Shown: positions 6,586 through 63,967 of the stretch, in pieces
How positions within the stretch are numbered: position 1 is the first letter of the stretch
How the letters are laid out: the number at the start of each line of letters is the position of its first letter
IMG/VR virus record: IMGVR_UViG_3300024346_000007
Source of the DNA: a virus
Reading direction: 5' to 3' (one strand)
Length of the DNA: 64,000 bases
Position numbers and translations under genes: made by a program
Notes under the pieces: model-generated
Database searches by the model: none
What the model saw: only the letters and a program-made list of their open reading frames with translations
What the model was told of the DNA's origin: nothing

Positions 6586-7074
6586 TTATGTAGTTTTAAT
6601 GAGGTTTAGTTTATTAACTCCAGTAAGATGCGCCTTACATATCATAGACCATGACTCACCATACTTCTCTAGATCTGATTCTAAAGAATATTCTGGGTTC
6701 TTACCCATCACTCTTTGGTTTTCTACTACAAGATCTACTTCATAGTAAGATTCTTGCCAACATATAATGTCTCCAGCCTCAGTAACTAAATTTAAATCTA
6801 TTAAATCATCTCTTAAAAATCTAAACTCTGCTGTTTGTGCTCTAGATTTACCAAAGGTTTGGTCTTCAGACACCTGTTGATCTACTAAGTATAGACAAGC
6901 TATTAATATAGGCTGGTTATACATCTTGTTTTTAGACTCTCCGTATATATTATACTTAGTCTCCGGTAGAGATATCTTATAATACAGCACCTCCTCAGCA
7001 ATAATCCTATTTACGATTTGTCTGCTGTGATGTCTGAAAAAGGATCTTGCTCTTATTCCGCCGTATAGTGCCAT
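6586..7074 (-). CDS. Neck/head-closure protein (T4 gp14-like)
   Basis: YNIYGES...EAGDIICW...YYEV motif; lies between gp13-like and gp15-like genes. Confidence 0.6.
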   Translation of the reverse strand: MALYGGIRARSFFRHHSRQIVNRIIAEEVLYYKISLPETKYNIYGESKNKMYNQPILIACLYLVDQQVSEDQTFGKSRAQTAEFRFLRDDLIDLNLVTEAGDIICWQESYYEVDLVVENQRVMGKNPEYSLESDLEKYGESWSMICKAHLTGVNKLNLIKTT

Positions 7075-7463
7075 TAATCTAGTTGTATTAAAGTGTCTAG
7101 CTTGGGTTTAGCCGCAACTATGCCAACAATATTATCAATATCTTGTTTTTTATCAGAACCCACCATAGCTTTTTTAATATACTCTAGATGTTTTTTAGGA
7201 TCTTTATTGGTAATAAATTTAACCTCCACTGTACTATATTCATAGTCTGTGAGAGTTCTGTTAATTTTATCCAATCTTTCATCTCCTCTCAAGTCTACAA
7301 TAGTAACACTCTTTATACCTCTTACTCTTTCTACGGCCTGTACTCTATTAAACTTTTTTTTAAACTTAATAAGGAATACACAAGAGTACGTATGAAAAGT
7401 TTTCTTTATAGACTCTTTTCTTTCAAATCTATCTTCTATTAATATATCTATTAACTTTACCAT
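7074..7463 (-). CDS. Hypothetical protein with MxKLxDILxE leader
   Basis: Starts MVKLIDILIE; translationally coupled to both neighbours. Confidence 0.7.
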   Translation of the reverse strand: MVKLIDILIEDRFERKESIKKTFHTYSCVFLIKFKKKFNRVQAVERVRGIKSVTIVDLRGDERLDKINRTLTDYEYSTVEVKFITNKDPKKHLEYIKKAMVGSDKKQDIDNIVGIVAAKPKLDTLIQLD

Positions 7464-8686
7464 TATGCTATGTAAATTGGCATTGGAAAATTGATAAAAG
7501 TATCACGCATCATAGCAGCTTCTTGAGATTTTTTCTCCATCTGTTTTTGACGTGACGTATCATCTAAAGTTCCTCTAAGTTGATCAATTAAAGCACCTTT
7601 TTCAGCAGTGGCTTGATCTATTAAAGTCTGTCCGTTTATAGTAACTTCTGCTCCAGGTACTGGTATTTGGCTATACACCCCTCTTATATTTCCTAAAGTC
7701 TCTTTAGTTATAGCTAGAGCATAATCAAATATCCATTTTTTGAATATGTCATTGATTTGACTGTATACAATTGTGTGGAACGGAACATTACTTATGTTTG
7801 TGATTATATTAGCACTTCCAGGTCCTATACCTACAGTAGTTACACTTGTAGCAGACGATCCAGATATAGCTACTCCACCTCTGATCAAAGAACCCATTTC
7901 AGACTTCTTAACATATGTGAAATATAACCTCCTATCAAAAGTTGGTATTGGGAATATCCTCAATTGATTGTTGTGTATCTCAAATGTATAAGCTGATTTT
8001 CTTATTTGATCATTGAATTCAATAGCTTGTATTTTAAGTACATCAAAATATACAGGCATCAACATAAAGTTAATACCAGGAGACATTTGACCAAAGCCAA
8101 AAGTTTCCATCAATGATTGCAATCCTGTACCAGTTCCTGCATATGGATCAAAGTACCTTGTAATAGCTGGTGGTGCTTCGTAAAATATCCTTTTTATATC
8201 TATCTGATCTCCAGATTGAGCTGCGCCAGAAGAACTAGCCCATGCGTTTAAATCGTAATACTGACGTCCTGAATATAAATCTATTGATCCTGTATAATAA
8301 GGTACATTTCCTCCACTTCCTACTTCACTGCCGTAATCAGCAGCTATTCTCATTATATTTGTAAAGTTAGGCTGGATTAATGCATTATTTAAAGAACTAC
8401 CAGTGGGGCTTCCCTCCATCGATAAGTAATTCTCTCTTATCTTATACTCATATAGTTCTTTACCATATGCAGATATTGCATCTTCCAATGCAGCGTAGAA
8501 GTTGATATCTTGTAATTCTATCTCCATGATAGGATATCCCAGTCTTCTAGATGCAAATTTTACAAATTTTGGACCGTCTGCCTGAAATTGAGGATCAGCA
8601 TCATAATATCCAAAAGGAGTATTACCAGATACTGGCAATAATGCTATAGATGCGTCGTAATATTGTATTTCTACTTGTCCTGCCAT
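7463..8686 (-). CDS. Neck/head-tail adaptor (T4 gp13-like)
   Basis: RRLGYPIMEIEL, WIFDYALAITKETLGNIRG, VTINGQTL and C-terminal PMPIYIA are typical of gp13-like adaptors. Confidence 0.8.
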   Translation of the reverse strand: MAGQVEIQYYDASIALLPVSGNTPFGYYDADPQFQADGPKFVKFASRRLGYPIMEIELQDINFYAALEDAISAYGKELYEYKIRENYLSMEGSPTGSSLNNALIQPNFTNIMRIAADYGSEVGSGGNVPYYTGSIDLYSGRQYYDLNAWASSSGAAQSGDQIDIKRIFYEAPPAITRYFDPYAGTGTGLQSLMETFGFGQMSPGINFMLMPVYFDVLKIQAIEFNDQIRKSAYTFEIHNNQLRIFPIPTFDRRLYFTYVKKSEMGSLIRGGVAISGSSATSVTTVGIGPGSANIITNISNVPFHTIVYSQINDIFKKWIFDYALAITKETLGNIRGVYSQIPVPGAEVTINGQTLIDQATAEKGALIDQLRGTLDDTSRQKQMEKKSQEAAMMRDTFINFPMPIYIA

Positions 8687-8714
8687 TTATAATTCTTTAT
8701 AAATATAAATATCG

Positions 8715-9404
8715 CTAACTCCTGTATTGTTCAAATATAGCCAGCATAGGTTCTACTATTGGGTGCCTATGATTGGTTTGCAGGGTTATTGTGCTAAATC
8801 CTGGGATATCTTTCATATGCTTACATATAAAATCAAACCCTGAGTCTTTCTTATTCTTAAGATCTATCTGTGCACTGTCTCCACATATAATAATCTTGGA
8901 TCCTATACACAAACGTCCCATAATAAGCTCCAGTTGATTCTCAGAACAGTTTTGTGCTTCGTCTATTATGACTATGCAGTTACTGAAGTTGAACCCTCTA
9001 AGAAATCCTACTGGGATGATCTCTATCTCTCCTTCTAATACTAACTTTTCTATCTTTTCTTTACCAGTAAGCCTATACATGTTATCATATACAGGTGCGG
9101 TAAATGGTGCCATCTTCTCATCTTTTGTACCTGGCAAGAATCCAATCTGTTCTCCGGCTGTAATAGCGGGCCTAGCTATTATAATCTTCTCAACTTCTTT
9201 CTTAAATAGCATATCTAGTGCTATTTGTGCCGCTAATAACGATTTACCACTACCTGCCTTTCCTCTGATAACTGCAATATCGCTGTTTATTATTTTCTCT
9301 TTTGCAATCTTCTGTTCATCGTTTAATGATAACTGAAATTTGATTGGGTTTTTAGGGACTCTCTTCTGCTGAAACACGGGATCTTTGTGATGGTTTGATG
9401 ACAT
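8715..9404 (-). CDS. phoH: PhoH-family ATPase
   Basis: GKAGSGKS Walker A, IGFLPG, FLRG, IIDEAQN, GDSAQID, RHPIV motifs. Confidence 0.95.
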   Translation of the reverse strand: MSSNHHKDPVFQQKRVPKNPIKFQLSLNDEQKIAKEKIINSDIAVIRGKAGSGKSLLAAQIALDMLFKKEVEKIIIARPAITAGEQIGFLPGTKDEKMAPFTAPVYDNMYRLTGKEKIEKLVLEGEIEIIPVGFLRGFNFSNCIVIIDEAQNCSENQLELIMGRLCIGSKIIICGDSAQIDLKNKKDSGFDFICKHMKDIPGFSTITLQTNHRHPIVEPMLAIFEQYRS

Positions 9405-9484: not shown

Positions 9485-11113
9485 TTAGATAGAGGCTAGA
9501 TCAGCTACTGCTATCTTTCCGAAGAATTCAGCACGCAACATTTTCTTAGCATACCTAGTCATCAGACCTTTCCTTGGTGTGAAAGTTTCTGGATCGTAGA
9601 GTAAAGGAGTCATGATCAATGGAATATAAGGAGCGAACACAGCACCTGTTTCAAGGAACTGGCTGCCTTTATAAGCCAAAAGAACAGTGTTTTCATTCAT
9701 GTATGGGTTAACATACACTTTGTAACGGCTATTCAATTGACCAGCTTTGTGTGAACCCATTGCAAACTCTTCTCTGCTACCATCGGTATCAGCGGCATAG
9801 CCAGGGATAGATTCGATGATTGTAGCGATAGAAGGTCCGCACATGATAACGTTAGCTTGTCCACGAAGAGTCTTCTTGTGAATAGTACGAGCTACGCTTT
9901 GGATCTTTGTACCCAATGTAGCAAACCAGCCACCTTGTGTATTGTAGAATCCAGTTGAAGGAGCAGTCCAAGTTCCAGTTGCTTTATTGTAGAACGTATT
10001 GTTCGCAGCAGACCAGAATTCGGTAGTGTTTGCATTTTGGATCAACATGTCGATGATCTCAAGATCGATTTCAAGAGAAATGTACTCAGAAAGAGTTGAA
10101 GTCAATTCAGCTTCAGCATCCAAAGATTGGTATGCGTTCAAATCTTGACTAAATTCCGGAGTCCACTTAGCTTTTAATTTCCTTGTTTTAGCAACAACTG
10201 CCTCAGAACGCATTTCTACGTTGATTTCAGGGATTGCATTAGATCCAGTTAATGGGCTAGATGCTGCATCTTCGAAGTCACCACGGCTGTTATCAGCAGG
10301 TTGCTTTTGATAGAATACTGCTCCAGAACCAGATCCAAGGTTTACTTGACCTGCAGAACCAGATACAACGAAAGAAAGAGTGCCGTTAGAAGCGTATGAA
10401 GTAAACTCAGCAAGCAAGTTGCTTTCGTTAACACCGCTACCAGTTACAACAAATCCACGAACACCGTTAGTATCCATACCAGAAAGCGCAACAGTTGCAG
10501 TTGTGATAGACAACTTACGTAGTTGACCAGCAGCTGCAGAAGCACTGTAAAGAGAATTGAAGTTAACGTCAGCTGCAGATGCAGTTGTGATTACATAGTT
10601 AGCAGAAGCAGAAGCTTCGTTAATTGAGTAACCGAAACGACCAGCACCATAAAGACCACCAGAAGGATCAACATCTTTAACGTTGGTTGTACCATACATG
10701 CTATCACCAGAAGTAAATCTGTTAGCTTGTGCTGTACCTGGTACGTTAGTACCATACTTGAATTCAAGGAAGAATACAAGACCAGCAGGGAGGGTCATTG
10801 GTTGTACACTAACAAATTCTTTAGCAGAAATGTCAGCGAAGATCTTACGCACGAGCGGAAGAGCTACACCAGCCCATTGTTCACCAGAACCAACGGTAAA
10901 AGAACCACCAGTACCAGTTTGAGATTGTTCAACCATAAGCTGTTTAGCTTGGTTTTCGAGGATGATAGCCATACGCTCTTTGCCGTATGGTTGCTTTGAA
11001 AGGTCATTACCTTCCAAAAGACCAGTTTCACCCCACTTCTTAACTAACCTTTGGGCTTCCGTCATTTGGGAAGCGTAAGGATTAGAACTTTCTAAGAGAG
11101 ATTGTACGTTCAT
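9485..11113 (-). CDS. Major capsid protein (T4 gp23-like)
   Basis: LENQ, LPLVRK, VSVQPMTLPAGLVF, AKTRKLKAKWTPEFSQDL, APYIPL, FTPRKGLMTRY motifs. Confidence 0.97.
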   Translation of the reverse strand: MNVQSLLESSNPYASQMTEAQRLVKKWGETGLLEGNDLSKQPYGKERMAIILENQAKQLMVEQSQTGTGGSFTVGSGEQWAGVALPLVRKIFADISAKEFVSVQPMTLPAGLVFFLEFKYGTNVPGTAQANRFTSGDSMYGTTNVKDVDPSGGLYGAGRFGYSINEASASANYVITTASAADVNFNSLYSASAAAGQLRKLSITTATVALSGMDTNGVRGFVVTGSGVNESNLLAEFTSYASNGTLSFVVSGSAGQVNLGSGSGAVFYQKQPADNSRGDFEDAASSPLTGSNAIPEINVEMRSEAVVAKTRKLKAKWTPEFSQDLNAYQSLDAEAELTSTLSEYISLEIDLEIIDMLIQNANTTEFWSAANNTFYNKATGTWTAPSTGFYNTQGGWFATLGTKIQSVARTIHKKTLRGQANVIMCGPSIATIIESIPGYAADTDGSREEFAMGSHKAGQLNSRYKVYVNPYMNENTVLLAYKGSQFLETGAVFAPYIPLIMTPLLYDPETFTPRKGLMTRYAKKMLRAEFFGKIAVADLASI

Positions 11114-11140: not shown

Positions 11141-12223
11141 TTACTTGATTATACCAGCAAGTTTCTGCCATCTTGATACTTGTTTATCAACATCGCCAAC
11201 TACGCTTTCGTTTATAACACGTTTTGTTGAAGTACCAGCTGCGCTAGAAGCGAAACCGATAGATTCTTTAAGACCGGATTTAACATTATCGTTTTTAACG
11301 CTGAATGCTTGATCCAAAGATTCGTGAACGATCTTTGATTCATTAACAGTTTCAGCTTTGTCAAAAGCACTGATAACTTTAATCTTTTGTTGTTCTGACA
11401 AGTTGTACTTGCGAAGAATTTTATTCAGATAAAGAAGTTTAGCGTTGATCAAATTGGTTTCATTAACCTTTTGAGTTAACTCAGCAGCTTGACGTCTAAT
11501 TTCTTGAAGTTCTTCTGATTCTTTTGGTTCATCTTCTTTCTTTTCTTTAGCAGCTTTAGCTTGCTTCATTTTTTCAAGAAGACTCATCATCTCTTCTTCA
11601 AGAGTTGCAACTTCGTCTTTTTCTTCTTCTTTTTCTTCTTTTTCCTCATCATCATCACCAGCAAGTTCAGCTAAAAGAGCTTGGATATCTATTTCTTCAT
11701 CCATATCTTCTTTAGCTTCTTCTTCTTCGGCATCGTCTTTGTCCTCAGCTTCGTAAACTTCACCATCTTCTTCAGATTCTTTAGCCTCGTAAGCTTCATC
11801 TTCTTCTTCTTCAGGAGCTTCCATTACTTTATCATCTTTACCCATTTCGTCAGCTTCTAATTCTGCTAATAGTTCATCAAGATTGAATCCTTCGTCAGCT
11901 TCGTCTTCTTCAGATGATTTTTTCATTTCTTTTTCTTCTTCTTCTTCTCCTGCTTCATACTCATCACTTTCACCTGCTTCGTGTTCTTTAGATCCATCTT
12001 CTTCAGGTTCAGCAACTTTTTTCTTTTTCTCAAATAAAGCAGCTTCATCTTCCTCTTCGTATTCTTCTTCGAGGTCATCAGCTTCTTCTTCAAGACGTGC
12101 AGTAAGCATAGATTTGATTTTAGAATCAAAAGCTTCGTTTAAACTAGCCTTGGCATTCTCAATAGCCATTTTTTTGATAGCATCCGCATCTGCGATTGCT
12201 TCTTTGAGCAAATTTGTGTTCAT
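11141..12223 (-). CDS. Prohead core/scaffolding protein (gp22-like)
   Basis: Highly acidic coiled coil directly upstream of the capsid gene; NLINAKLLY motif and RWQKLAGI C-terminus. Confidence 0.85.
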   Translation of the reverse strand: MNTNLLKEAIADADAIKKMAIENAKASLNEAFDSKIKSMLTARLEEEADDLEEEYEEEDEAALFEKKKKVAEPEEDGSKEHEAGESDEYEAGEEEEEKEMKKSSEEDEADEGFNLDELLAELEADEMGKDDKVMEAPEEEEDEAYEAKESEEDGEVYEAEDKDDAEEEEAKEDMDEEIDIQALLAELAGDDDEEKEEKEEEKDEVATLEEEMMSLLEKMKQAKAAKEKKEDEPKESEELQEIRRQAAELTQKVNETNLINAKLLYLNKILRKYNLSEQQKIKVISAFDKAETVNESKIVHESLDQAFSVKNDNVKSGLKESIGFASSAAGTSTKRVINESVVGDVDKQVSRWQKLAGIIK

Positions 12224-12376: not shown

Positions 12377-12985
12377 TTAGCAGTGGCAAACACCGGTATT
12401 ATTGCAAATTAAATCTTTAACTATCTTATCTATACTATCGTATGACTTTTTAGTTGCTTCATATCCTTCTCTGAGGCTTAGGTTGGCCCCTTGGGTTGAT
12501 TCAAAGGACACTAAATCAAAGGTAAGAAGATTAAAATCATCATTAACAGTAACGGTACCATCATGTGATTCTTGTACACTTCCCATACCTCTTGAACTAA
12601 TACCTACTGGAATGCCTCTACGAAGCAATCCTGCGGCTATTCTGCCTGCTGGGAACTCATCTCCGTCTAGTATTTCAATATCTCCACATACATCATCTCC
12701 TTTCCAGTATATCTTCTTGATATTATGTGATACGTTCTTTAGATTCACTACGTTAGAATCACTGTGGTCTAGTTCTCCTAAAGCACGGTTAGCTTTTACC
12801 ATAGTATCATTGTACTTATCTATCTCTCTCCTCAATACATCTGAAGGATATACCCTGCCATTCCTATTTTTAGCATTAGAACGTTGTATAATCACTCCTG
12901 TGATCATCATAGGCTTACCAGGTTCGTATGCTTCTAATAGCTGATTCGGTAATTGTATCTGATGGTATTCTGTAAGTACTTGCAT
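12377..12985 (-). CDS. Prohead protease (T4 gp21-like)
   Basis: KNRNGRVYP, ALGELDH, VSHNI, GISSRGMGS, FDLV motifs. Confidence 0.95.
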   Translation of the reverse strand: MQVLTEYHQIQLPNQLLEAYEPGKPMMITGVIIQRSNAKNRNGRVYPSDVLRREIDKYNDTMVKANRALGELDHSDSNVVNLKNVSHNIKKIYWKGDDVCGDIEILDGDEFPAGRIAAGLLRRGIPVGISSRGMGSVQESHDGTVTVNDDFNLLTFDLVSFESTQGANLSLREGYEATKKSYDSIDKIVKDLICNNTGVCHC

Positions 12986-12996: not shown

Positions 12997-15852
12997 TTAT
13001 ATTCCTTTTATTTTTTTGAAAATCATTTCATCTGTAACATTTTTTTCATCATTAGGGTCCTTATTGTCATCAGATATTCCTTTAGCTTGCCTAAACACAG
13101 ATATTAAACCTTCTGCATTTTTTGCACTTCCCTTTGCTTTTATAGCATCTTTAAGCTGCGGTGTTATATTAGCAACCAATCTATCTAACTGGTCAGCTCC
13201 TTGACCTTTAGTTGCCACTGGCCCTTGTTCAGCTACTCTACCGCCTCTAGCAGTCAAAGAGTCTGGATTGTATGGCTGTGTAAGCTGTGATCCTAATGGA
13301 GAGTCAGAAGCATAGTCTAATTGATCTAGATCTGATACTTGATACCCTTCTGGTGCATATGAATTGAATATTGCTATTGCATCTACGCCCATTGCTTGTA
13401 GTTCATGTACTAGTTTAGATACTATAGCATGTTTAGCACTGCCGTTAGCGTGTGTGTAAGGATTATCACTGTCTTGAAAACCCCAATCATACTTCTTTAG
13501 ATACTCTTCAAGACGCTTTTTTTTTACATCTTTACCTTGATATCCCCAATACTGGCTTACTTCGGCTTCTTTGATTGCCTCACGAATACGCTTACGAATA
13601 TATGATTCCATTGCCTCGTTAGCAGGGCTAGGAAATACTTTATCTAGTACTTTATTAAGAGGATCCATTGTATCTTGTATCTTTGTAACCTTCTTATCTG
13701 GGGCTTCGTATGTACCTGTAACGTTTCCGTTTTTAGTTCCAACAAACATTGCTTTTCCAGCACTAGTCAATTCTACTATTAGTTCATTTTTATCTTTATT
13801 GAACATAGCACTTTTTACAGTATCTGATACGTTTAATGTTTTGTCTGCGTCTGTAGGGTCTTGTATTATAAAAGAGACTCTAGAAGTTTCTATTTTTTTC
13901 TTATCTTCTTTAGATAAGTCTTCATCTATGTCCACTCTTTTCGCTTTCATTTCTGCTTTTTGATAAACAGAATATCCAGGTCCCATTTTTTTAGCTATTT
14001 CCATAGCTTCTACTCTATCATCGGTTCCAAGAGGCCCACCATCAGCATCTCTCAATAATCTACCGTTTGGATACTTCTCCGTATCATTTTTATCTACTAT
14101 ATAATATTTGTACGTTAGATCAGATGGGTTTATAGTTGCCATTTTAACTCCCATATTAACAGGTACGCTTATAAACCTACCCATTTGCTTAACAGTTTTC
14201 ATTTCTGGCTTTTCTGCCTTTACTTTATCTTGAGTAGCTTTTTCTTTACCGGGTTCAGATCTAAAAGTAGTTAGTACTTTTGTAAGATCACTTTTTTGAC
14301 CTACTGGGCTTTTGCTTTTTAATACTATGCTTCCTTTTCTAACTGGGCCAACAGACATCTTTTGGTTAAATTGAAGAGGTACTCCAACTTCAATATCTTC
14401 AAAAGCTATATCTTTATTGTCAGGATCAGACTTAACAAATTTAAGTATCTGACCTACACTCATGTCTGCTACATTTTCTTTTCCGCCATCTATTGTTAGC
14501 CCTACTTTATACTTAGGACCTTCATCAGCTTTAGCTATAGTTGGCTCATCTACTGGTTTATCTTTAGAAGCTTTTGGCTCTTCCTTATAATCTTCAATAG
14601 ATTTAAATCCGCTTTCTAAACCTTTTGCAGATTTAAAGTTTCTAACTTGAGTATCTGTGAGACTTATAATATACTCCCCTGTAGCTGTTTCTCCTTTATC
14701 ATCAATATTCTTTTTAGCTACTTTACTGTTAATTAAAGTACCATCTAGTTTGCTTCCTGGAATGGTTTTAATTAGATACTTCTTCCTTGCTTCTTCCTCG
14801 TTTAAAAAAGAACTTTCTTTAAGGCTTTTCATATTATCGTATATTAATTTTATCATTTTATATAGGTCACCTTTATTATCTTTGTCTAATCTATTTTTTA
14901 TTATATACTCTATAGCAGCATCTCTTTCTGATTCTTTTTCTATAGAATCAAACAACTTATTCAGAAATATTTTTATAGAGTTTCCTACTTCTTCTTTTGC
15001 TTTTTTCTTTTCTGCGTCTGGTATTGATGTTGTTTTTGATAGATCATAATTGTTTTTTATCTTATTTAATATTCTATCATTGTCTAATACAAACCCAGAG
15101 GCAGCTGCTTTATCTTCTTTAGAAAAATTATCTGCTACATCCGTTGTTTTAGAAGCTTGGGGCTCCGGTATTTCCTCATCTGCTGGTTCTTCCATGTCAG
15201 CTTCATCATAAAGAAAACTAAGATCTACGTCTAGAGGCTCTTCTTCATCACCAGTTGATGTAGCAGGTGTTGATTTTACCCTCTTAAGTTTTTGCTTTTC
15301 TCTATCAGTTAAAAAACTATTAAAAGTAAATAAGTCCATAGGCCTTTTACTTAAACCTTCAGAAATATCTTTTATAGGAACTAGTACTAGCTTTATCTTA
15401 TCTTTTTGTTCATTAGTTAATCCTTTAACTACATCCTCTTTTAGATATATGTAATAAGTATGGTCCGCACCAGTCCTTCTTCCAAATCTAGCCTTTGGTA
15501 TAGTTATATAGTATATGTCTATGTAATGATTAGGTTCTGAGCTGGTAGGTGATACTAAGGTCGATACTTTAGGATTTACATTTTGTTTTAGATCTTTAAA
15601 ATCTTGCTCTGAAATAGACCTATATATAGTGTATATTTTTTGACGTACCCCTTTAGTAAGGTTGTTAAATCTTATTTCGTGTACCGATCCTGCCTTATAT
15701 GAAGATTTTAACCCTTCTGGGTTTATATTTAATCCGTATGTTTTTGAAGCTTTTTTAGGAGGCTCCATTTCATCCCTCGTCCGTCTCTTCCTTTTTATAG
15801 GATCTTCTTCGGCTTCGTTAAAGAAATCATATATTTCAGACTGTAGGCCCAT
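12997..15852 (-). CDS. Large Lys/Glu-rich hypothetical protein, probable internal head protein
   Basis: 951 aa, highly charged, between portal and protease, with several internal LxE/IxE clusters. Confidence 0.6.
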   Translation of the reverse strand: MGLQSEIYDFFNEAEEDPIKRKRRTRDEMEPPKKASKTYGLNINPEGLKSSYKAGSVHEIRFNNLTKGVRQKIYTIYRSISEQDFKDLKQNVNPKVSTLVSPTSSEPNHYIDIYYITIPKARFGRRTGADHTYYIYLKEDVVKGLTNEQKDKIKLVLVPIKDISEGLSKRPMDLFTFNSFLTDREKQKLKRVKSTPATSTGDEEEPLDVDLSFLYDEADMEEPADEEIPEPQASKTTDVADNFSKEDKAAASGFVLDNDRILNKIKNNYDLSKTTSIPDAEKKKAKEEVGNSIKIFLNKLFDSIEKESERDAAIEYIIKNRLDKDNKGDLYKMIKLIYDNMKSLKESSFLNEEEARKKYLIKTIPGSKLDGTLINSKVAKKNIDDKGETATGEYIISLTDTQVRNFKSAKGLESGFKSIEDYKEEPKASKDKPVDEPTIAKADEGPKYKVGLTIDGGKENVADMSVGQILKFVKSDPDNKDIAFEDIEVGVPLQFNQKMSVGPVRKGSIVLKSKSPVGQKSDLTKVLTTFRSEPGKEKATQDKVKAEKPEMKTVKQMGRFISVPVNMGVKMATINPSDLTYKYYIVDKNDTEKYPNGRLLRDADGGPLGTDDRVEAMEIAKKMGPGYSVYQKAEMKAKRVDIDEDLSKEDKKKIETSRVSFIIQDPTDADKTLNVSDTVKSAMFNKDKNELIVELTSAGKAMFVGTKNGNVTGTYEAPDKKVTKIQDTMDPLNKVLDKVFPSPANEAMESYIRKRIREAIKEAEVSQYWGYQGKDVKKKRLEEYLKKYDWGFQDSDNPYTHANGSAKHAIVSKLVHELQAMGVDAIAIFNSYAPEGYQVSDLDQLDYASDSPLGSQLTQPYNPDSLTARGGRVAEQGPVATKGQGADQLDRLVANITPQLKDAIKAKGSAKNAEGLISVFRQAKGISDDNKDPNDEKNVTDEMIFKKIKGI

Positions 15853-17502: not shown

Positions 17503-19359
17503 CTAAATATCGTGATTAATAAGGTTACTTTCATCTAATAGCCCTGATTCTTGATCTTTTTGTTCATATAGAACAATTTTCTTTTTTCTTTTGCCTTCTA
17601 GGCCTCTCAGAGCGGACTCTAATGCAAACGGTTTTACTTTATCTACCCTAGTTTTGTCAAACGGAGTGTCTGGTTTCATACCTTTAGAACCTAGCGGATC
17701 CCTACCAAAAGCAGATTTATCGCTTTTAAATATAGATGCTTTCTCTTTAGGTCTGCCTACTGGGTTTTTTTCAAACTCATCGTATGGATCTGGCACATCT
17801 AGATTAGGATCTTCCTTCCCACCATCTGAATATACAGATGCTAAGTCGTGTGGCGTACCATAAGACTCTCCAGAGATAGAAGGGTCGTTACCTTCATTTT
17901 CTATTTGGTTATATCTGAAGGTTCTCTTGACGTCTTCTGCTATAAGATCTCTCTGTTCGTTAATCTGATCTTCGGACATCTGGAATATCTTATCTCCGAC
18001 CCAATCAGAAGAGAATAGCTTCTTATCCATGATATTTCCAGCAAGATCAACCTTCTCTTTAAGGAGGGCTATCTTTTCTTGTTCGTAGATTATCGATGGG
18101 TTATTCAATTCAAGGTTAAAATTAAGAAGATCAGCGTCTTCAAAACCTTGAACATATAGATGAATTATCGCTATTTTTTCTAATTCACTGATTATAATCC
18201 TCTGTAAACGTTCAACTGTGCGACTAAACCTTACATCTAATGCACTAATAGTTGATTTACCGTTAAGCTCGTCTGAGTAGTTTAGGAACGATTTAGGCAC
18301 TTTCATAGAACCTAGCATAAGATCCCTAAGGAACTCAACGTCTTCTATACCAGCGTACTCTAAGCCTTTTGTAGTGTCTATCTTTGTAGTATTGTCTCCA
18401 GGTCTTACAGGGATGTAGAAGTCTTCCATCATGTTCTGTACATTGAACTTCAGGTTATAGTCTCCTGTTTGTTGATCTACAAATGGAGTTTTCTTCATTC
18501 CAGTAATAGTCTGTTGTACAAACGCATTAACTTCATTAGGAGGTATATTACCTACGTTAATGTAGAATACACGCTTCTCAGGAGCCCTCATAATCCTATG
18601 CAATAGCATAGCATCCATCATAAGGGTATACTGCTTAAAATACTTCCTTGCAGGCTCTATATAAGATCTACCAAAAGGAAGATAGTTTGTATCAGTTAAT
18701 AATCTAAAGTGAGCTATCTCAAAGTTCTCAAAAGACTCTTTATTTTTAGTAGCAGTGGTTCCACCAGCTACAGCAACTGGGTCATATATGAATTTAATAT
18801 ATGATGGGTTATTTGGATCTTGTCCTTCTTCACGAATCATATCATATACTGATAAAGGTCTTACCCCATATACTCCAAACTTCTCAGCAATATCTAATTT
18901 CAAAAAGAAGTCACCATATTTACACATAGACCTTATCCACATAGGTAGATTAAATTCTACATTTAATACCTGATAGAATAGATTGTATAAGATTTTCTGG
19001 ATATTCTCATTAGAACTTCTGATCTTTAGAACTTCGTTAGTGTCTCCTTTTAGGGTAGCTTCTTCACATAATATATCCAGTACTGAAGATACTAGACCGT
19101 CTGTGTCCATGGCTTCATAGTCTGCGTACAACTGGAGTCTTAGAGTTTGGTAGTTTAACGTTGGGTTAAACTGCATCCTTTGACCTGCTTTATGTAGCCT
19201 TGTGAATCTATCTACTAGAGAGTTTGTCTGCAGCTGTCCGAAAGATTGTATTCTCTCTACGTCCATTACTCGCAGCTGCTTACCTCCAACATTTCTTACG
19301 ACAACGTCAGTGGAGAATAAACGTTTGAGCCTGGGAAAAAGCGACTTATCTACCGGCAT
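17503..19359 (-). CDS. Portal protein (T4 gp20-like)
   Basis: YEAMD, RIMRAPEKRVFYINVGNIPP, EDFYIPVR, DVRFSRTVERLQ motifs. Confidence 0.95.
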   Translation of the reverse strand: MPVDKSLFPRLKRLFSTDVVVRNVGGKQLRVMDVERIQSFGQLQTNSLVDRFTRLHKAGQRMQFNPTLNYQTLRLQLYADYEAMDTDGLVSSVLDILCEEATLKGDTNEVLKIRSSNENIQKILYNLFYQVLNVEFNLPMWIRSMCKYGDFFLKLDIAEKFGVYGVRPLSVYDMIREEGQDPNNPSYIKFIYDPVAVAGGTTATKNKESFENFEIAHFRLLTDTNYLPFGRSYIEPARKYFKQYTLMMDAMLLHRIMRAPEKRVFYINVGNIPPNEVNAFVQQTITGMKKTPFVDQQTGDYNLKFNVQNMMEDFYIPVRPGDNTTKIDTTKGLEYAGIEDVEFLRDLMLGSMKVPKSFLNYSDELNGKSTISALDVRFSRTVERLQRIIISELEKIAIIHLYVQGFEDADLLNFNLELNNPSIIYEQEKIALLKEKVDLAGNIMDKKLFSSDWVGDKIFQMSEDQINEQRDLIAEDVKRTFRYNQIENEGNDPSISGESYGTPHDLASVYSDGGKEDPNLDVPDPYDEFEKNPVGRPKEKASIFKSDKSAFGRDPLGSKGMKPDTPFDKTRVDKVKPFALESALRGLEGKRKKKIVLYEQKDQESGLLDESNLINHDI

Positions 19360-22630: not shown

Positions 22631-22894
22631 CTATTTGGCCTTTTCTACTTTCTTAGGCTCCCACCAGTCCGTACAATACTCTAATGGATCATATGGAATA
22701 CTCTCATTACCACTCCATTTTTTATATAGTTCATTGCTGCAATTACCTGGTTTGTCTTCTTTTCCTTCATTCCAGTAGCTGCAATTAGCGCAACAAGCCC
22801 CACCTTTAGGGACTCTAATACCAGCTTTATGATCTTTTGGGAGAATGTACTCTCCACCGCCGTATTCTTCAAGTAAACTTAATAACTTTATCAT
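22631..22894 (-). CDS. Small Cys-rich metal-binding protein with MIKLLSLLEE leader
   Basis: CCANC-x14-C-x21-CxxW pattern. Confidence 0.65.
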   Translation of the reverse strand: MIKLLSLLEEYGGGEYILPKDHKAGIRVPKGGACCANCSYWNEGKEDKPGNCSNELYKKWSGNESIPYDPLEYCTDWWEPKKVEKAK

Positions 22895-23502
22895 GTCTTT
22901 AAATAATTGTTTAATACTCCACCTATTGTTGATAAATCTAAATCAAAATCTGTAAGTTCTTTTTCTCTTAAGTCTCTTTTTTTAGTTACGTAGTCTATCC
23001 CTACAATACCTATAAATTCATTTTTTATTGTATACAAAGGAAACATATAAGCACTTTTAACATTAGCGCTGTGTATTACCGAAGTAAACCCCTCGTATTG
23101 TCTTTCTGATACAGTTGTATCTGGTATTGATATAATAGAACCCTTATATAAACTGTGTATTGATTTGCTAAATAAGCTAGCTGGAATGTTTTGAAATTGT
23201 GTTTGACAAGGTACTACTCCAGAAGATACCACTTCGTAGACCATGCTAAATTTTTGTATAGATTTTCCTGTTGGGTAAAAGTGTCCTCCATTATGAAATT
23301 GTACTAACCAAACTCTATCACTGTTGCTGTCTTTTCTTATTTCAGAAAGTTTATCAGTTATAGTCTGGTCAAACTCCATAGACTCTAACAATGAATCTTT
23401 CTTCTTTTTATCAGTTATTGACTTTACGTAATGTACCGCTACAGGACCAACTACAGAAGTTGTTACAGCAGTTATTATAGCTACTATTAGTTCTGTATTC
23501 AT
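22891..23502 (-). CDS. Putative T4 T-type holin (N-terminal TM plus GAF-like domain)
   Basis: Single N-terminal hydrophobic helix; DRVWLVQFHNG...SAYMFPLY...FIGIVGIDY is GAF-like. Confidence 0.55.
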   Translation of the reverse strand: MNTELIVAIITAVTTSVVGPVAVHYVKSITDKKKKDSLLESMEFDQTITDKLSEIRKDSNSDRVWLVQFHNGGHFYPTGKSIQKFSMVYEVVSSGVVPCQTQFQNIPASLFSKSIHSLYKGSIISIPDTTVSERQYEGFTSVIHSANVKSAYMFPLYTIKNEFIGIVGIDYVTKKRDLREKELTDFDLDLSTIGGVLNNYLKT

Positions 23503-24050
23503 TATTTTTTTGATCTGTTTTTAAACGATACTTTTGCTTTGTCAGTGTTTGATACAAATTGTTTTCCTTTTTTTGATGCTGCCACTTTCTTTTTTGATGT
23601 TGCAGCTCTTTCTGCTTTTGTTAATCTTTCTGCTTTAGCTCTAGGCAGACATCTTGTGGTTGGACTTCCTTTTTTCATAGTTCCACAAGGTCCAGCTATA
23701 TTGCCTTCAGTATCTATTCTAACCCAGTCTTCTTTATTAAACCAGCTGTGTAGGTCTTCCTCTAAATCTTCTTCCTTTATCATACCTTTACACACTTGAA
23801 CTGCTCTGCCCATCAGATAGGCTGAGTGTTTTTCTCCTGCTGCTTTTCTACGTTCAGCATATGCCTTTCCTTTAGGGCATAGCTTTTCCATAAGCATTTG
23901 GTCTGAATTATCCTCTCCGCACTTATGGCATGTATAAGGATCATCTCCTCCTTTGGACAACTTCCACGACCATCCACACTCTTCGTTTTTACACTTTATT
24001 GTGACGTCATCCTCTTCAAACAACTCTTTTAGTATGTCTATAAATTTCAC
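23502..24050 (-). CDS. Multi-module basic hypothetical protein with MKFIDILKE leader
   Basis: Zn-ribbon (CKNEEC...CHKC), CPKG...SAY module and LHSWFNKEDWV...CLP module. Confidence 0.7.
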   Translation of the reverse strand: MKFIDILKELFEEDDVTIKCKNEECGWSWKLSKGGDDPYTCHKCGEDNSDQMLMEKLCPKGKAYAERRKAAGEKHSAYLMGRAVQVCKGMIKEEDLEEDLHSWFNKEDWVRIDTEGNIAGPCGTMKKGSPTTRCLPRAKAERLTKAERAATSKKKVAASKKGKQFVSNTDKAKVSFKNRSKK

Positions 24051-24676
24051 TATTCTGCTGATTTTATAGCTTGTGCGGTAGCTATAGCGTATTGCTTTGG
24101 CCCCATTTTATCTTTGCCTCCGCCTTTCATAGCCATTGCTTTTATTATATCTTCTTTCTTAGCTTTCTCAGCTTTTGTAAGTTTTTTCTCATCTACCGGC
24201 TGAATCATTTCTTCTTCCTCATCACCTTCTTCTTCTTCTCCACCTAACTCATGGAATCCCTGAGCTGCTTGATCTATAAAGTTTTCTGCATTAGAAATAT
24301 GATCTTGAATCCATCCTGGGATGTTCCTTTCTTCATCTCCTAATTTTCTAGCTAGATCTACAGCTGACTTTATTATTGACTCTAGGCTACTTTTTGCCAT
24401 GGACACTTCATGATCTTCTCCATCAGCGCCTTCTTTAACTCTTTTAACGTTCTTCCACATTGCAGCTGCTGCCACTTTCTCTCCTTTTTCCTTAGAGCCG
24501 TACTTTTCAGCAGCTTTATCAGCTACTTTTTCAAACCCTTTACCCTTCTTACCAATATCTTTACCTGCTTTTGCCTTTTTAACTACCGCTGATTTTTCTT
24601 TTTTAGACAGTCCTGCAGAAGGTTTTTTCTTTTTTGCCTCCAGTAAGGCTTCTTTAAAAATTTCAGAGAGTTTCAT
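24050..24676 (-). CDS. Charged hypothetical head protein with MKLSEIFKE leader
   Basis: DHEVSMA...WIQDHIS module; late motif at 24694-24702. Confidence 0.7.
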   Translation of the reverse strand: MKLSEIFKEALLEAKKKKPSAGLSKKEKSAVVKKAKAGKDIGKKGKGFEKVADKAAEKYGSKEKGEKVAAAAMWKNVKRVKEGADGEDHEVSMAKSSLESIIKSAVDLARKLGDEERNIPGWIQDHISNAENFIDQAAQGFHELGGEEEEGDEEEEMIQPVDEKKLTKAEKAKKEDIIKAMAMKGGGKDKMGPKQYAIATAQAIKSAE

Positions 24677-25548: not shown

Positions 25549-26142
25549 TTACCAGAATCCTGTAAAATTAGATTTTAACCCAAGCATACTTGCATACCTT
25601 GGAAGTCTGCACGACCAATAACCAGCGCTAGTCTTATCTTTAGCTTGTGCACATTTATGCCTAGCTGCAAAAGATTTACGAGCCTTAGGATCATTTATCT
25701 TAGCCTTTAACCCTGTTGTATCTCCAAAAGATACTTTCTTAACACCTCCGCCTGGTTTACGTACATATACGTAGAACTTTTTACTTCCACCACGCTTTGG
25801 TTTATTTAATTCAACGTCTTTGCCTTGATGCTTCACCTCTTGTATTTGCTCCATACTCATGGGAAAGTCTAATGGAACTTTTACCCCGTTATAATAACCA
25901 TACTCTCCTAGATCAGTATTAGATAGAATTTTCTCTTCTTCCTCAGTTATTACTATTAGACCTTTCTTATATAGTTCACGAGCTTCTTTGAATAAGTCGA
26001 AGTACTTCTTAGAGAATGGTCTATAGATATTCTCTGTGAGAGGTCTATCATTATCTACATGGTACCTCAATCCTTCGGATAAAGTATCTCCAGAACAGCC
26101 GCAATCATCAAATGCTTCTAGGAATATTTCTCTTAGTTTCAT
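25549..26142 (-). CDS. Hypothetical protein with MKLREIFLE leader and basic C-terminal domain
   Basis: KKVSFGD...ARKSFAARHKC...AGYWSC module recognisable from large dsDNA viruses. Confidence 0.7.
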   Translation of the reverse strand: MKLREIFLEAFDDCGCSGDTLSEGLRYHVDNDRPLTENIYRPFSKKYFDLFKEARELYKKGLIVITEEEEKILSNTDLGEYGYYNGVKVPLDFPMSMEQIQEVKHQGKDVELNKPKRGGSKKFYVYVRKPGGGVKKVSFGDTTGLKAKINDPKARKSFAARHKCAQAKDKTSAGYWSCRLPRYASMLGLKSNFTGFW

Positions 26143-58065: not shown

Positions 58066-58075
58066 GGGTTATAGA

Positions 58076-58992: not shown

Positions 58993-59006
58993 TAAAAACA
59001 AAACCC

Positions 59007-59117: not shown

Positions 59118-59121
59118 ATTG

Positions 59122-59397
59122 CTAGGCTTCCTTTTTTACAGCCAGTCTAAAATCAGATAATTGATTTTGCATTTTAAGGATACTATTAGATAAGTCAGAT
59201 ATTGCATCATAAGACTTTTCATCATCCCCGTATTTTGATTCCAGCCTAGATATAGCTTTATAAGACTTCTCTAAGTCTTGTTCAAGTTTATCAACAACCT
59301 GTGGCTGATTGATAAAATCATCAATAGTAATGGAAAGAAAGCGGTTATTAAGCATATCCGCAATCTTTCTAGAATTTTGTATTTCTTGATTTTCCAA
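59122..59397 (-). CDS. Hypothetical coiled-coil protein
   Basis: 91 aa ORF in operon. Confidence 0.6.
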   Translation of the reverse strand: MENQEIQNSRKIADMLNNRFLSITIDDFINQPQVVDKLEQDLEKSYKAISRLESKYGDDEKSYDAISDLSNSILKMQNQLSDFRLAVKKEA

Positions 59398-59402
59398 TTA
59401 AA

Positions 59403-60476: not shown

Positions 60477-61138
60477 TATTTTCTGTTTATACGATTATAA
60501 GCTTCTTGTAATCCAGGAATAATAGCAGCAGCGTCTTTCTTGTCTACAGAAGTTACATCGAGAACATCTTCTCCATCTGCTTTCTTCTTTCCAGATAATT
60601 GATCTAGTTTTTGGAAAATAACATTCCAACCAGACTTAGTTTCCAAGTCCTTCATTGAAGGTTCTTTCTTTATAATTTCACGAATAATATCTTCTATTGC
60701 CATTGCAAGATCTGCGTAAGTAGATATACTAGAATTTAATCTGGTTAAAACACCAGAAGGCAGTTCCATTTTATTATCGTCATATGCCTCATTTACATTA
60801 GCAATAGTCATAGCACTGTTTAAATTAGTCATTTGATTATCTTTAAATTTAAAATCAAACTTCATAAATGATTTCATTGTCATACCGTTAAAAATTTCAC
60901 CTTTTATGCTATCTATGTTTCCGGCACTATCTCTAGACATGTTATATGAAATATCAGATTTTTTAAGTTCTGGATATTTCTTTATAATAGCTTCTCCTAC
61001 TTTTTTTACCTCATCAGGCATTGATTTGTCTAATAGTTCAGCAACATAGCCTTCAAAATAATCTTTAAATTCATCAGAATTATTTTCAGCAATTTTAGCA
61101 GCAATTTCTGCTATTCGTGTTTTAAAGTCTTTTTTCAT
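60476..61138 (-). CDS. Hypothetical protein, possible internal head protein
   Basis: 220 aa; late motif at 61157-61165; RIAE/VNE/LQE sites. Confidence 0.65.
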   Translation of the reverse strand: MKKDFKTRIAEIAAKIAENNSDEFKDYFEGYVAELLDKSMPDEVKKVGEAIIKKYPELKKSDISYNMSRDSAGNIDSIKGEIFNGMTMKSFMKFDFKFKDNQMTNLNSAMTIANVNEAYDDNKMELPSGVLTRLNSSISTYADLAMAIEDIIREIIKKEPSMKDLETKSGWNVIFQKLDQLSGKKKADGEDVLDVTSVDKKDAAAIIPGLQEAYNRINRK

Positions 61139-61164
61139 TTTAGTTTTGTTATATACTATAAATA

Positions 61165-62001
61165 TTAATTAATCTCGGAAGCGAACCTCTTTAAAAATCT
61201 TTTATATAATGTAGGCTTAGTAGACCATGTTTTTATAATAGATAGGTCTCTTTTAAAATCTGCTAATATAGCATTCCAATTATCTTGGTTCCACTCTCTT
61301 GAGCTAAATAACCAACCAGTGCCTAGCAATTCATCATCATTAAGAATGTCATCTATAGACTTAGTCCTTATCTCAGAAAAAAGCTTAAGCATGTCCTGTT
61401 TAAATTTCTTTTTGTTTCCTACCTTACCAAAAGACTTAGAAAGCTTGTTTATAAGAGGAGTGGTGAAAGCATCAAACTCCCAAGGGGATTTAATATACTT
61501 TTCCATATTCTTATCTAGCTCACTCTTCTGGTTAGGGTTTGATTTAGATAGAACAAACTTACTGCCGGAGGGCTCCGCTCCTTTTTTAGCATATTCTCTT
61601 CCAAACAGCTTCACGTCTCTAACTTTAGGATCCATAGCATGGACAAGCTCATGCTCTCCAAGCTCCAAAAAATCCTCTTTATCTCCAAAATAAGCTAAAT
61701 TAACTAGCATTATATCCTTACGGGTATCCATCCTACCAGCTCCAGCATCCTCTGGATTATTATAAAATCCTACAGATACGTTAACATCTTGTCCCTTAAG
61801 GTCTTTTATTTTTATGGCTTCTTTGTACTGAGAGGGTATATAAGGATCATTATACTCCTTAGGGGACTTATTTGAAATATCCTGTATATTCTTATCGATG
61901 TAGTTATAGATATCCTCTAGCATATCAAGGGCACTCTCAGGCACCTTAACAATCTTAGACTCAGATACAATCTCTTTTAGTATGTCAATTAATTTAATCA
62001 T
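61165..62001 (-). CDS. HExxH metallopeptidase-like protein with MIKLIDILKE leader (start revised to 62001)
   Basis: GEHELVHAMD...YIKSPWEFDAF; ATG overlaps the upstream stop (ATGATTAA). Confidence 0.7.
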   Translation of the reverse strand: MIKLIDILKEIVSESKIVKVPESALDMLEDIYNYIDKNIQDISNKSPKEYNDPYIPSQYKEAIKIKDLKGQDVNVSVGFYNNPEDAGAGRMDTRKDIMLVNLAYFGDKEDFLELGEHELVHAMDPKVRDVKLFGREYAKKGAEPSGSKFVLSKSNPNQKSELDKNMEKYIKSPWEFDAFTTPLINKLSKSFGKVGNKKKFKQDMLKLFSEIRTKSIDDILNDDELLGTGWLFSSREWNQDNWNAILADFKRDLSIIKTWSTKPTLYKRFLKRFASEIN

Positions 62002-62596
62002 TAGGGTAATCAAAGATTTTATCATGTCCAGGAACAGGAAGTTCCCCTTTATAGAAAACAGTCATGTTAAACCCTTGTCTTTTGAAACTATACCCTGGAG
62101 CCTTATTAATCATAGACTGAACCATCATATCATAGATACGATCCCTCTTAGTCATCACAGAAGCCCCTGGAGTTTCCTTGCCGGAAACAATACCGCTGTA
62201 GGATAAAGACTCAGGCTTAAACCTCTCTATGAAAGCAAGAATGATCTTAGCAACAGTAAACAACACAGCAACAGCATCAAACTCCTCAGTCTCCCCAACC
62301 TCCGGCTTATCAAAGGAATAAGCCATAACATCCTCATCATCTTCTTTAGAGATAGGATCAAAAGAAATCTCTGTCTCCCATTTAAAGTCTGGGCTATTCT
62401 TAAAGTAGGTAGATTCAAAAGTAACCTCGTACTCCGTACCCTTTTTATTCTCAAAGGTATAAGTCACAAAGTTCTTACTAGGACTAATAGTCTCTACCTC
62501 TGGCTCACTAAAGGAGTAGGTATTCTCCCCAACTTCTTTTAAGAGACGGGTCTCTTCTTTGAGAGATTCCTTAAACAAATCCAATAGCTTTATCAT
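61994..62596 (-). CDS. Hypothetical protein with MIKLLDLFKE leader (start revised to 62596)
   Basis: Late motif at 62602-62610 immediately precedes this ATG. Confidence 0.7.
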   Translation of the reverse strand: MIKLLDLFKESLKEETRLLKEVGENTYSFSEPEVETISPSKNFVTYTFENKKGTEYEVTFESTYFKNSPDFKWETEISFDPISKEDDEDVMAYSFDKPEVGETEEFDAVAVLFTVAKIILAFIERFKPESLSYSGIVSGKETPGASVMTKRDRIYDMMVQSMINKAPGYSFKRQGFNMTVFYKGELPVPGHDKIFDYPND

Positions 62597-62791
62597 ATAG
62601 GTATAAATATATAAAAACCGCCAGGTCGCGCGAACCACATACAATATATTTTATATATACAACAACAACGAACAGTAAGAAACAAGCCCCAAACAGCCCC
62701 TAAAGGAACCGGGGAATACAAATATTAGCCCACGGTAAGCAAAGAGCTTCAGAGGGCTGTATTCAATCCTCAGAGGCCTTATAGAAATGTG

Positions 62792-63226
62792 CTAGTAAAG
62801 ATTCTCTTTTTTAAGACAGTACCTGAACTTGTTTCCTTGTATTGTAATTTTTTCAACTTCAAAAAGACTATTTAGGCGTTTCCAAACATTGCTAGCTTCT
62901 GAGCTAACAAATGAGGAAGGCTTCCCATCCTCCCTAAACTCACCTGAACACACGCTGCCTAGTGTTTCTGCTAGCTTTACGTATGTAGGCACAGCATAGG
63001 ATTTACCCCTAAATTCCGGGTCTATAAAGATTGTATGGACCACATTATCCACCCCGTCTATATCTTTGATAACCATGGCTCCTATATTATCGGATGTTTT
63101 TTTATCTACTATATTAAACCCATTTCCGGAATACTTTTTTTCAACATCACTAAAAGGAACTAACTCTACCTCTGGGTAAGAGGACCCTAGCTTAGAAAGT
63201 TCTAACAACATCTCTAGTAGTTTCAT
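62792..63226 (-). CDS. GNAT-family acetyltransferase with MKLLEMLLE leader
   Basis: IFIDPEFRGKSYA acetyl-CoA motif A; ASNVWKRL. Confidence 0.75.
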   Translation of the reverse strand: MKLLEMLLELSKLGSSYPEVELVPFSDVEKKYSGNGFNIVDKKTSDNIGAMVIKDIDGVDNVVHTIFIDPEFRGKSYAVPTYVKLAETLGSVCSGEFREDGKPSSFVSSEASNVWKRLNSLFEVEKITIQGNKFRYCLKKENLY

Positions 63227-63331
63227 CTATAAGCTTTTAAGGACCTGATGATTTAGATCTATTCTTTTCTTGGTCTTCTTGCCGGACCTATGAGACTTCA
63301 TGGGCCTGGGCTTTGGTTTTGCGTTTGCCAT
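63227..63331 (-). CDS. Small basic protein (34 aa, not in ORF track)
   Basis: MANAKPKPRPMKSHRSGKKTKKRIDLNHQVLKSL*; exactly abuts both neighbouring genes. Confidence 0.65.
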   Translation of the reverse strand: MANAKPKPRPMKSHRSGKKTKKRIDLNHQVLKSL

Positions 63332-63967
63332 TTATTTGTTTTTTAGAATGTCTTTTGTAATATTAAAAAATGATGATATATTAGAAAGATCCTTAAAAGC
63401 AGATGGTTTTCTCTTATTAGGATCAAAATTCCTGAATTTTTCAACGTCTTGTTTATTGCCTAATATATGAATCTGCTTTGGATCAAACACAGCAATTGAG
63501 GTTCCTTCTTGTTGGCCATAGTCCTTTCCTATAACAGCGTCATGTCCTTTAATTTCGCTTTTAATCCTTCTAGGATCGGTATAATCACCGCTTACGTAAA
63601 CATCGTCTGGAACGTCTGATAGGGGCTTAGGGGCCATGTATGGAGACTTAACATCAACAACAGCATAAACAACCATCTTTTTATATTTCACTTTTTCCGC
63701 ATAATCCTTAGAAGTGCTAAAATAAACTATATACCCTTTAAAAGAATTGTCTTTATGTATGATATCTTTAGAGATGCTACTATGGTAAACAATGTCTTTG
63801 ATCTTGCTACTAGGGAATATAGTAGCCAAGTAATCTGAATATAGATCTATAGTACCAATCTCTGCTAGTTCTGGATGGGTATCAAATAAATCCCCAATAG
63901 CGGCAAAATCATCAAAAGGCTGCTTTGCTTCTCTCAACACCTCAAGCAATATATCAATAAGCTTCAT
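63332..63967 (-). CDS. ADP-ribosyltransferase-like protein (ART-PolyVal type) with MKLIDILLE leader
   Basis: VYHSS...YFSTSKDYA...VDVKSP...GHDAVI...IAVFDPKQI. Confidence 0.65.
   Translation of the reverse strand: MKLIDILLEVLREAKQPFDDFAAIGDLFDTHPELAEIGTIDLYSDYLATIFPSSKIKDIVYHSSISKDIIHKDNSFKGYIVYFSTSKDYAEKVKYKKMVVYAVVDVKSPYMAPKPLSDVPDDVYVSGDYTDPRRIKSEIKGHDAVIGKDYGQQEGTSIAVFDPKQIHILGNKQDVEKFRNFDPNKRKPSAFKDLSNISSFFNITKDILKNK

Follow-up and report, generated by a model that had tools for sequence, protein, structure and literature searches.

The window analysed here, a 64-kb stretch of IMG/VR virus record IMGVR_UViG_3300024346_000007, raises the question of why nine of its genes, which encode otherwise unrelated proteins, begin with almost the same nine or ten residues, M(I/V)KLxD(I/L)LxE. 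The original prediction had read this shared N-terminus (hereafter, the tag) as a portable address that loads diverse proteins into the prohead. Our analysis points in the same direction, and the tag is most likely this lineage’s version of the capsid-targeting sequence (CTS) carried by the internal proteins of phage T4.

Firstly, we determined how tightly the tag is bound to protein starts. All nine previously listed N-termini are present in the window (Table 1), on the minus strand, which also carries nearly all other genes. When the core motif K[LF].[DES][ILM][LF].E was scanned over all six frames of the 64 kb, ten matches were obtained, nine of which lay immediately after a start codon (M, MI, MV, or a GTG at 24050). 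A weight matrix for the tag reached 10 bits or more at the nine N-termini, compared to only 1 of 16,646 internal positions. Glu is the last residue in every copy, while P3, the hydrophobic residue of the closing hydrophobic-x-E, is Leu in six copies and Phe in three. In line with the earlier claim that the bodies behind the tag are unrelated, an all-against-all BLASTP comparison of the nine revealed no significant similarity. Further, the copies vary in their Leu, Ile and Glu codons and, therefore, it is the peptide and not the DNA that is conserved; an origin of the tag as a DNA repeat or recombination site was rejected on the same grounds. As a separate observation, the tenth match of the core motif (KFSDLLKE) occupies residues 13–20 encoded by the open reading frame (ORF) 53403–53771, a small conserved protein of the tail/baseplate module, and the same sequence is also found in a 137-kb relative.

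At 62001 and 62596, the tag coincides with the second in-frame start of a longer, mechanically delimited ORF. Since the orthologues of both genes in relatives begin exactly at the tag, and a promoter-like motif is located just upstream of 62596, the tagged start was taken as the better call in both cases.

To place the window among its relatives, we sampled 19 IMG/VR loci around the terminase gene (74–94% identity), contigs of 137 and 90 kb, and a pair of complete genomes (173 and 181 kb). In the 19 terminase loci, 21 strict motif matches were found and all 21 were located at ORF starts; window and relatives together provided 30 tagged ORFs with 15 unrelated body families. At syntenic positions in relatives, the tag was retained and the sequence behind it was replaced. 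Where orthologues could be compared, that of 22631–22894 carried the tag in ten out of ten cases and that of 7074–7463 retained it in relatives G1 and G2, while some relatives of 23502–24050 have Lys at position 9, followed by an ILEE or LKEE site 4–5 residues further on. The complete genomes of 173 and 181 kb harbour six and five tagged genes, respectively. Five are also encoded in the 137-kb relative (80% complete), none of them within its replication module (approximately 6–26 kb); a tag equally common on replication proteins, which the original prediction had named as evidence against itself, was thus not observed there. Among the cultured relatives that we found, a tagged family is present only in the immuto phages, with MIKLIDLLTE on gp231 and MRLLELLRE on gp082 of Flavobacterium phage immuto. 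We found no published description of this tag consensus in the literature.

The tag was then compared with its T4 counterpart. As the original prediction had correctly stated, the T4 CTS is MKTYQEFIAE (PMC8442874) and gp21 cleaves after L/I-x-E (PMC9026906). The propeptides taken off in T4 measure 7–65 residues (PMC9026906). The CTS is borne in this exact form by IPII and IPIII, and also by IPI (Mullaney & Black 1996; reviewed in PMC9026906, PMC3012670). The first ten residues of IPIII are enough for packaging, and mutagenesis has assigned residues 4 and 7 to targeting and residues 8 and 10 to gp21 processing (PMC9026906). The internal proteins of T-even phages are diverse, with the CTS as their sole common part (PMC3012670). 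The window tag resembles this signal in being an N-terminal peptide of about ten residues on otherwise unrelated proteins, and also position by position: MIKLIDILKE has L4, D6, I7, L8 and E10 where MKTYQEFIAE has Y4, E6, F7, I8 and E10, so that both are hydrophobic at positions 4, 7 and 8 and acidic at position 6, with Glu at 10 and an L/I-x-E end suited to a gp21-family protease. At the targeting positions, the ten-residue form of the tag has L4 and I/L7, and the nine-residue form shows the same pattern shifted by one position. Hence, the elements of a T4-type CTS, namely an N-terminal signal, the residues at 4 and 7, a processing site, a gp21-family protease, the scaffold, gp23 and gp20 proteins and unrelated bodies, were all found in the window.

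There are also differences. The window consensus is MIKLxDILxE or MKLxDILxE, with Phe at times in P3, and nine copies occur in 64 kb compared to three internal proteins in T4. The exact CTS is present there in two copies of identical DNA, in contrast to the window copies with their varying codons. Moreover, the window cargo is mostly enzyme-sized, the host phylum is Bacteroidota, and the system is known here from sequence alone. A more distant parallel is provided by the giant phages phiKZ, 201phi2-1 and SPN3US, where propeptides of ejection or inner-body proteins are cut by diverged gp21 homologues (PMC9026906, PMC5694885). In these phages, many proteins inside the head are cut after Glu by a relative of gp21, as predicted for the tagged proteins of the window; however, the giant-phage enzymes cut after Glu following short motifs of their own (PMC9026906), and the window protease is much closer to T4 gp21.

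Judged by its genes, the uncultured window phage is a distant T4 relative of Bacteroidota. Its major capsid protein shows 54% identity to the counterpart in Flavobacterium phage immuto and 25–33% to the homologues from Rhodothermus phage RM378 and from classical T4-like phages infecting Aeromonas and Klebsiella (25–26% for the latter two). A Bacteroidota host fits because the regions upstream of the gene starts are devoid of Shine–Dalgarno sequences. Like T4, the phage encodes gp20, gp21, gp22-like and gp23 proteins (Table 1). The gp21-like protease of the original prediction was recovered as a Peptidase_S77 protein and is the presumed tag-removing enzyme. Also as predicted, the capsid protein, scaffold and protease themselves have a hydrophobic-x-E within their first 8–18 residues (MNVQSLLE, MNTNLLKE and MQVLTE...NQLLE, respectively). 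The first 62 residues of the capsid protein contain LLE, ILE and MVE sites, and the LTE and LLE at the N-terminus of the protease recall the early LIE-9 site of T4 gp21 (PMC9026906). The scaffold, for which no Pfam or PHROG match was obtained, has 14 [LI]xE sites in 360 residues, i.e., 3.9 per 100 residues compared to a window mean of 1.14 (3.4-fold), and it is presumed to be the docking partner of the tag. Two tag-like islands (I-D-I..L-x-E), DEAFDLDEIIAELE and DEEIDIAALLAE, are conserved at residues 110–123 and 175–186 inside its otherwise variable acidic middle part; these may represent cleavage or self-association units of the scaffold itself.

In order to establish the wider distribution of the tag, a DNA pattern for MIK[LF]xDI[LF]xE was searched for in IMG/VR and in 596 Gb of prokaryote genomes. 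In IMG/VR, it was present in at least 120 loci. Among the 80 loci listed, 98 of the 99 matches open an ORF of at least 50 residues and 83 have no more than 15 open codons upstream. The prokaryote genomes provided 86 loci, in which 25 of 89 matches looked N-terminal, several of them plainly in phage fragments. The tag is close to phage-specific, and in cellular genomes it is near chance level. Since the cellular matches are near chance and mostly not N-terminal, they argue against a bias of host translation starts, and this explanation was rejected. Peptidase_S77 is encoded in seven out of nine other large tag-bearing contigs, and in three out of three complete ones.

The mechanism that we regard as probable is modelled on T4 head assembly. 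Late in infection, tagged proteins would be made alongside the head proteins, and their short amphipathic N-terminus would dock them on the scaffolding core, made up of the gp22-like protein and perhaps also the gp21 protease, as the gp23 shell closes. The gp21-family protease would then cut after the Glu of hydrophobic-x-E, freeing the mature protein within the head, from which it would exit with the DNA at the next infection. We infer packaging and cleavage, as well as docking and injection, by analogy with T4. The cargo would include host-takeover or counter-defence enzymes: an ADP-ribosyltransferase (ART) in the window, together with the zeta-toxin-like kinases, cell-wall hydrolases and NUDIX or nuclease domains of related phages.

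Several observations weigh against this proposal. Firstly, the mature tagged proteins have isoelectric points (pI) of 4.6–9.7 and are not uniformly basic, unlike the T4 internal proteins. Secondly, the three tags with Phe at P3 deviate from L/I-x-E, although two of them have a canonical L-x-E within five residues; similarly, some orthologues have Lys or Asp in place of the last Glu, with a second L-x-E within five residues. Thirdly, the tag is no better conserved between orthologues than the body (identities of 0.46–0.85 vs. 0.69–0.85, respectively) and, therefore, the case rests on the recurrence of the same tag across unrelated bodies. Further, the link between the tag and Peptidase_S77 is partly confounded, many large phage contigs being T4-like, and the NT5C-type nucleotidase and P-loop kinases among the tagged families could equally be ordinary metabolic enzymes. 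Finally, we found no virion proteome or N-terminal sequence in the literature for the window phage or its relatives, immuto included.

Among the alternatives, the one that fares best sees the tag as a docking or recognition peptide that leads elsewhere than into the capsid, for instance to the neck, the tail, an intracellular phage complex or a single modifying enzyme. The location of the tagged gene 7074–7463 among neck and head-completion genes and the metabolic appearance of some bodies (NT5C, kinases) agree with it; however, the tag reproduces all four mapped positions of the T4 CTS together with the gp21 cleavage motif and co-occurs with Peptidase_S77, and no conserved modifying enzyme was seen beside the tagged genes in the gene lists made, which did not include a systematic neighbour search. 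We consider this explanation unlikely. A role in expression, in which an AT-rich, weakly structured coding start or a favourable nascent peptide would aid initiation in Bacteroidota and the peptide would stay on the protein with no part in sorting, seems to us very improbable. AT-rich codons exist for every residue of the tag (I, K, L, F, D, N, E), and the absence of Shine–Dalgarno sequences would suit such a role. Nevertheless, the order of residues is fixed though the codons vary, the most highly expressed genes (capsid, scaffold, portal and tail) have no tag, the terminal hydrophobic-x-E would be left without a purpose, and the cellular genomes with near-chance, mostly non-N-terminal matches include those of Bacteroidota. 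The weakest candidate, a functionless by-product of gene shuffling in which short homology lets new bodies recombine behind an existing start, would account for the clustering of tagged genes (the second cluster adjoining a stretch without alignment to the closest relative) and for body switches right behind the tag at syntenic positions, but it can scarcely be upheld, as the tag nucleotide sequences are too little conserved to serve as recombination substrates and the same peptide is kept in phages with 74–94% terminase identity and in far more distant contigs, which argues for selection on the peptide.

With capsid targeting as the favoured explanation, the bodies behind the tag indicate what would be delivered. 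No function was obtained from Pfam or PHROGs for seven of the nine. The body of 63332–63967 matched ART-PolyVal (PF18760) with an E-value of 0.0035 and 18.6 bits, below the 31.2-bit cut-off; eight of its ten aligned homologues matched this family, the best with an E-value of 8.2e-9. In the alignment, the VYH motif with His62 does not vary, and Phe83, part of the (Y/F)F motif behind it, hardly does. The acidic residue of the H-Y-D active site was not assigned, and an AlphaFold2 model based on the ten-sequence alignment had a pLDDT (predicted local distance difference test score) of 45. A second tagged ART-PolyVal protein (E-value 2.1e-10, 42 bits) was found in a complete genome, together with two other tagged proteins, a Zeta_toxin/AAA_33 kinase and a DUF5872 protein. 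Among the IMG/VR matches listed, 92 tagged proteins fell into 36 Pfam families, which include DUF5872, DUF6934, Zeta_toxin, DUF5824, LRR and RimK as well as Phage_lysozyme2, Peptidase_M23, NUDIX, RNase_T, Hydrolase_2 and NT5C. Within the window itself, there are weak Atlas leads from 61165–62001 to the LPD23 cluster (at 0.87, a lead only) and from 61994–62596 to DUF6934, and the body of 24050–24676 shows a weak likeness to the scaffold (E-value 4e-9 with composition correction off).

The ART can be related to two known systems. T4 Alt is a head-packaged, injected ADP-ribosyltransferase whose seven-residue N-terminal propeptide is cut by gp21 (PMC9026906, PMC5512222). The product of 63332–63967 is likewise predicted to be an ADP-ribosyltransferase with a short, propeptide-like N-terminal tag in a T4-type phage; however, its probable clade is ART-PolyVal (H-Y-D) and not the R-S-E clade of Alt (PMC5512222), so the two would be functional analogues only. 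Indeed, ART-PolyVal was the sole ART family matched, with no match to Alt/VIP2 (R-S-E). The second system is that of the polyvalent proteins found in phages and conjugative elements, for which packaging and injection have been predicted with T4 Alt as the ART model (Iyer, Burroughs, Anand, de Souza, Aravind 2017, PMC5512222). In other phages, the ART domain homologous to the 63332–63967 body lies inside ORFs of 1,200–2,350 residues, from residue 108 or later, so the ART-PolyVal domain seen here on a tagged protein is shared with giant multidomain ORFs. The peptidoglycan- and nucleotide-directed enzymes among the tagged proteins also match classes of polyvalent-protein domains (PMC5512222), and both tagged and polyvalent proteins are predicted to travel with the DNA. 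Whereas a polyvalent protein joins its domains in one giant polypeptide, those of the window stand alone as small proteins that each bear a tag. Given these polyvalent-type domains and their predicted injection, the tagged proteins look like free-standing polyvalent-protein domains. As a side observation, free-standing ART-like homologues in four IMG/VR loci (L024, L029, L030 and L033) have another common leader, M(I)DD(V/I)RKMID(R/K), which may be the address tag of another lineage.

More broadly, we tentatively propose that throughout a large group of aquatic T4-like phages, most of them uncultured, the tag labels the set of injected proteins in a way that can be read from sequence, a generalization whose chances we place a little under even. 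If it holds, any gene starting with M(I)KLxDILxE would encode a protein delivered with the DNA. The tagged families, which number in the hundreds (ADP-ribosyltransferases, zeta-type kinases, NUDIX proteins, nucleases, lysozymes and many DUFs), would then constitute a catalogue of effectors of takeover and counter-defence acting in the first minute of infection, and tagged single proteins and giant polyvalent proteins would be interchangeable delivery routes for the same domains. If capsid targeting is the correct explanation, a ten-residue motif would suffice to predict the injected proteins of an uncultured phage from its sequence, providing candidates for effectors of host takeover and anti-defence. 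Because the same domains occur either singly behind a tag or fused in giant proteins, the idea of T4 internal proteins becomes linked to that of polyvalent proteins. It would also follow that the logic of the CTS and its key positions have been retained across very distant T4-like phages. The principle itself would be expected by a T4 specialist; new are the breadth of the cargo, much greater than in T4, and the nearly phage-specific distribution. On the practical side, the tag might serve as a protein-packaging handle in phages of Flavobacteria or other Bacteroidota, as the T4 CTS does in E. coli.

Table 1. Head genes, tagged genes and promoter-like sites of the 64-kb window.
Feature	Position	Strand	Basis or remark
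Tagged gene, 129 aa, MVKLIDILIE	7074..7463	-	Directly after head-completion/adaptor gene; mature pI 9.7
Tagged gene, 87 aa, MIKLLSLLEE, then GGG linker and Cys-rich body	22631..22894	-	Tag on ten of ten orthologues
Tagged gene, 182 aa, GTG start, (M)KFIDILKE, zinc-ribbon-like body	23502..24050	-	phrog_23735
Tagged gene, 208 aa, MKLSEIFKE-ALLE, Lys-rich then acidic body	24050..24676	-	ATATTTATA upstream
Tagged gene, 197 aa, MKLREIFLE	25549..26142	-	phrog_7595; orthologue of immuto gp099
Tagged gene, 278 aa, MIKLIDILKE, closest to T4 pattern	61165..62001	-	Orthologue in relative G1 begins at tag
Tagged gene, 200 aa, MIKLLDLFKE-SLKE	61994..62596	-	ATATTTATA 6 nt upstream
Tagged gene, 144 aa, MKLLEMLLE	62792..63226	-	Second cluster (61–64 kb)
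Tagged gene, 211 aa, MKLIDILLE, putative ART-PolyVal-type ADP-ribosyltransferase body	63332..63967	-	Weak Pfam match in window copy; better matches in homologues
Major capsid protein, gp23 family, N-terminal propeptide	9485..11113	-	Pfam Gp23, E 9e-75, match from residue 78
Acidic scaffold, gp22-like	11141..12223	-	Position, acidity/composition, [LI]xE sites; not a family model
Prohead core serine protease, T4 gp21 family	12377..12985	-	Peptidase_S77, E 6.6e-27; phrog_207 head maturation protease, 4e-47
951-aa head-module protein	12997..15852	-	Between portal-side genes and protease; N-terminus closes in hydrophobic-x-E (MGLQSEIYDFFNE)
Portal protein, gp20 family	17503..19359	-	Pfam Portal_T4, E 6.5e-68
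ATATTTATA sites (examples)	5073, 8698, 8704, 17492, 19389, 22618, 24694, 26791, 40331, 61157, 62602	- (coding)	

The promoter-like motif near the tagged genes is the 9-mer ATATTTATA, a candidate late promoter. In the window, 15 copies lie on the coding strand and one on the opposite strand; the corresponding ratios are 22:3 for the 137-kb relative, 18:4 for the 90-kb relative and 16:1 for immuto. At a distance of 6–40 nt, the motif precedes genes for the portal, head completion and the tail, as well as the tagged genes starting at 24676 and 62596, and five further tagged genes lie downstream in the same gene runs headed by this motif. When reverse-complemented, ATATTTATA roughly matches the T4 late promoter, TATAAATA. 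The latter was rejected as a local signal, since its 26 matches (vs. 14 expected) are mostly on the non-coding strand; the strand-specific motif is ATATTTATA.

The tagged genes form two clusters, at 22.6–26.1 kb and at 61–64 kb. The window is collinear with the 90-kb relative at approximately 80–84% nucleotide identity, except for about 5.5 kb in the region 56500–62000 of the window, which does not align and adjoins the second cluster. This stretch looks like a hypervariable region such as those at the internal-protein loci of T-even phages. Nearby, the product of 60476–61138 has an N-terminus, MKKDFKTRIAEIAAKIAE (MKNEKDFKTYISEIAA in the 137-kb relative), that is closer to the T4 sequence MKTYQEFIAEA than to the local tag, a likeness that may be due to chance.

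The 951-residue head-module protein, for which no family match was obtained in Pfam or PHROGs, has relatives starting with MTFSDIIFYSLKE and MDFETIIYNILNE. Its N-terminus closes in hydrophobic-x-E in all relatives (FFNE, SLKE and ILNE), and a weak likeness to the scaffold was observed. It may be a large core or cargo protein.

Further common N-terminal peptides were noted in immuto (NC_055915.1). ME(N)FDLKKFLVEN(K/R)LT is present on four proteins (at 1803, 103806, 117631 and 118632), and a peptide of the type MKKSxLxxIIKE on at least three (102294, 113188 and gp072). All of these variants close in hydrophobic-x-E, and the clade may use several forms of the tag. In addition, the window proteins encoded at 22082–22612 and 24050–24676 align to different parts of immuto gp079 (114006–116531), a protein of 841 residues starting with MKKLIRIVE, which suggests that tagged single proteins have been fused into a larger multidomain protein or have arisen from one by fission.

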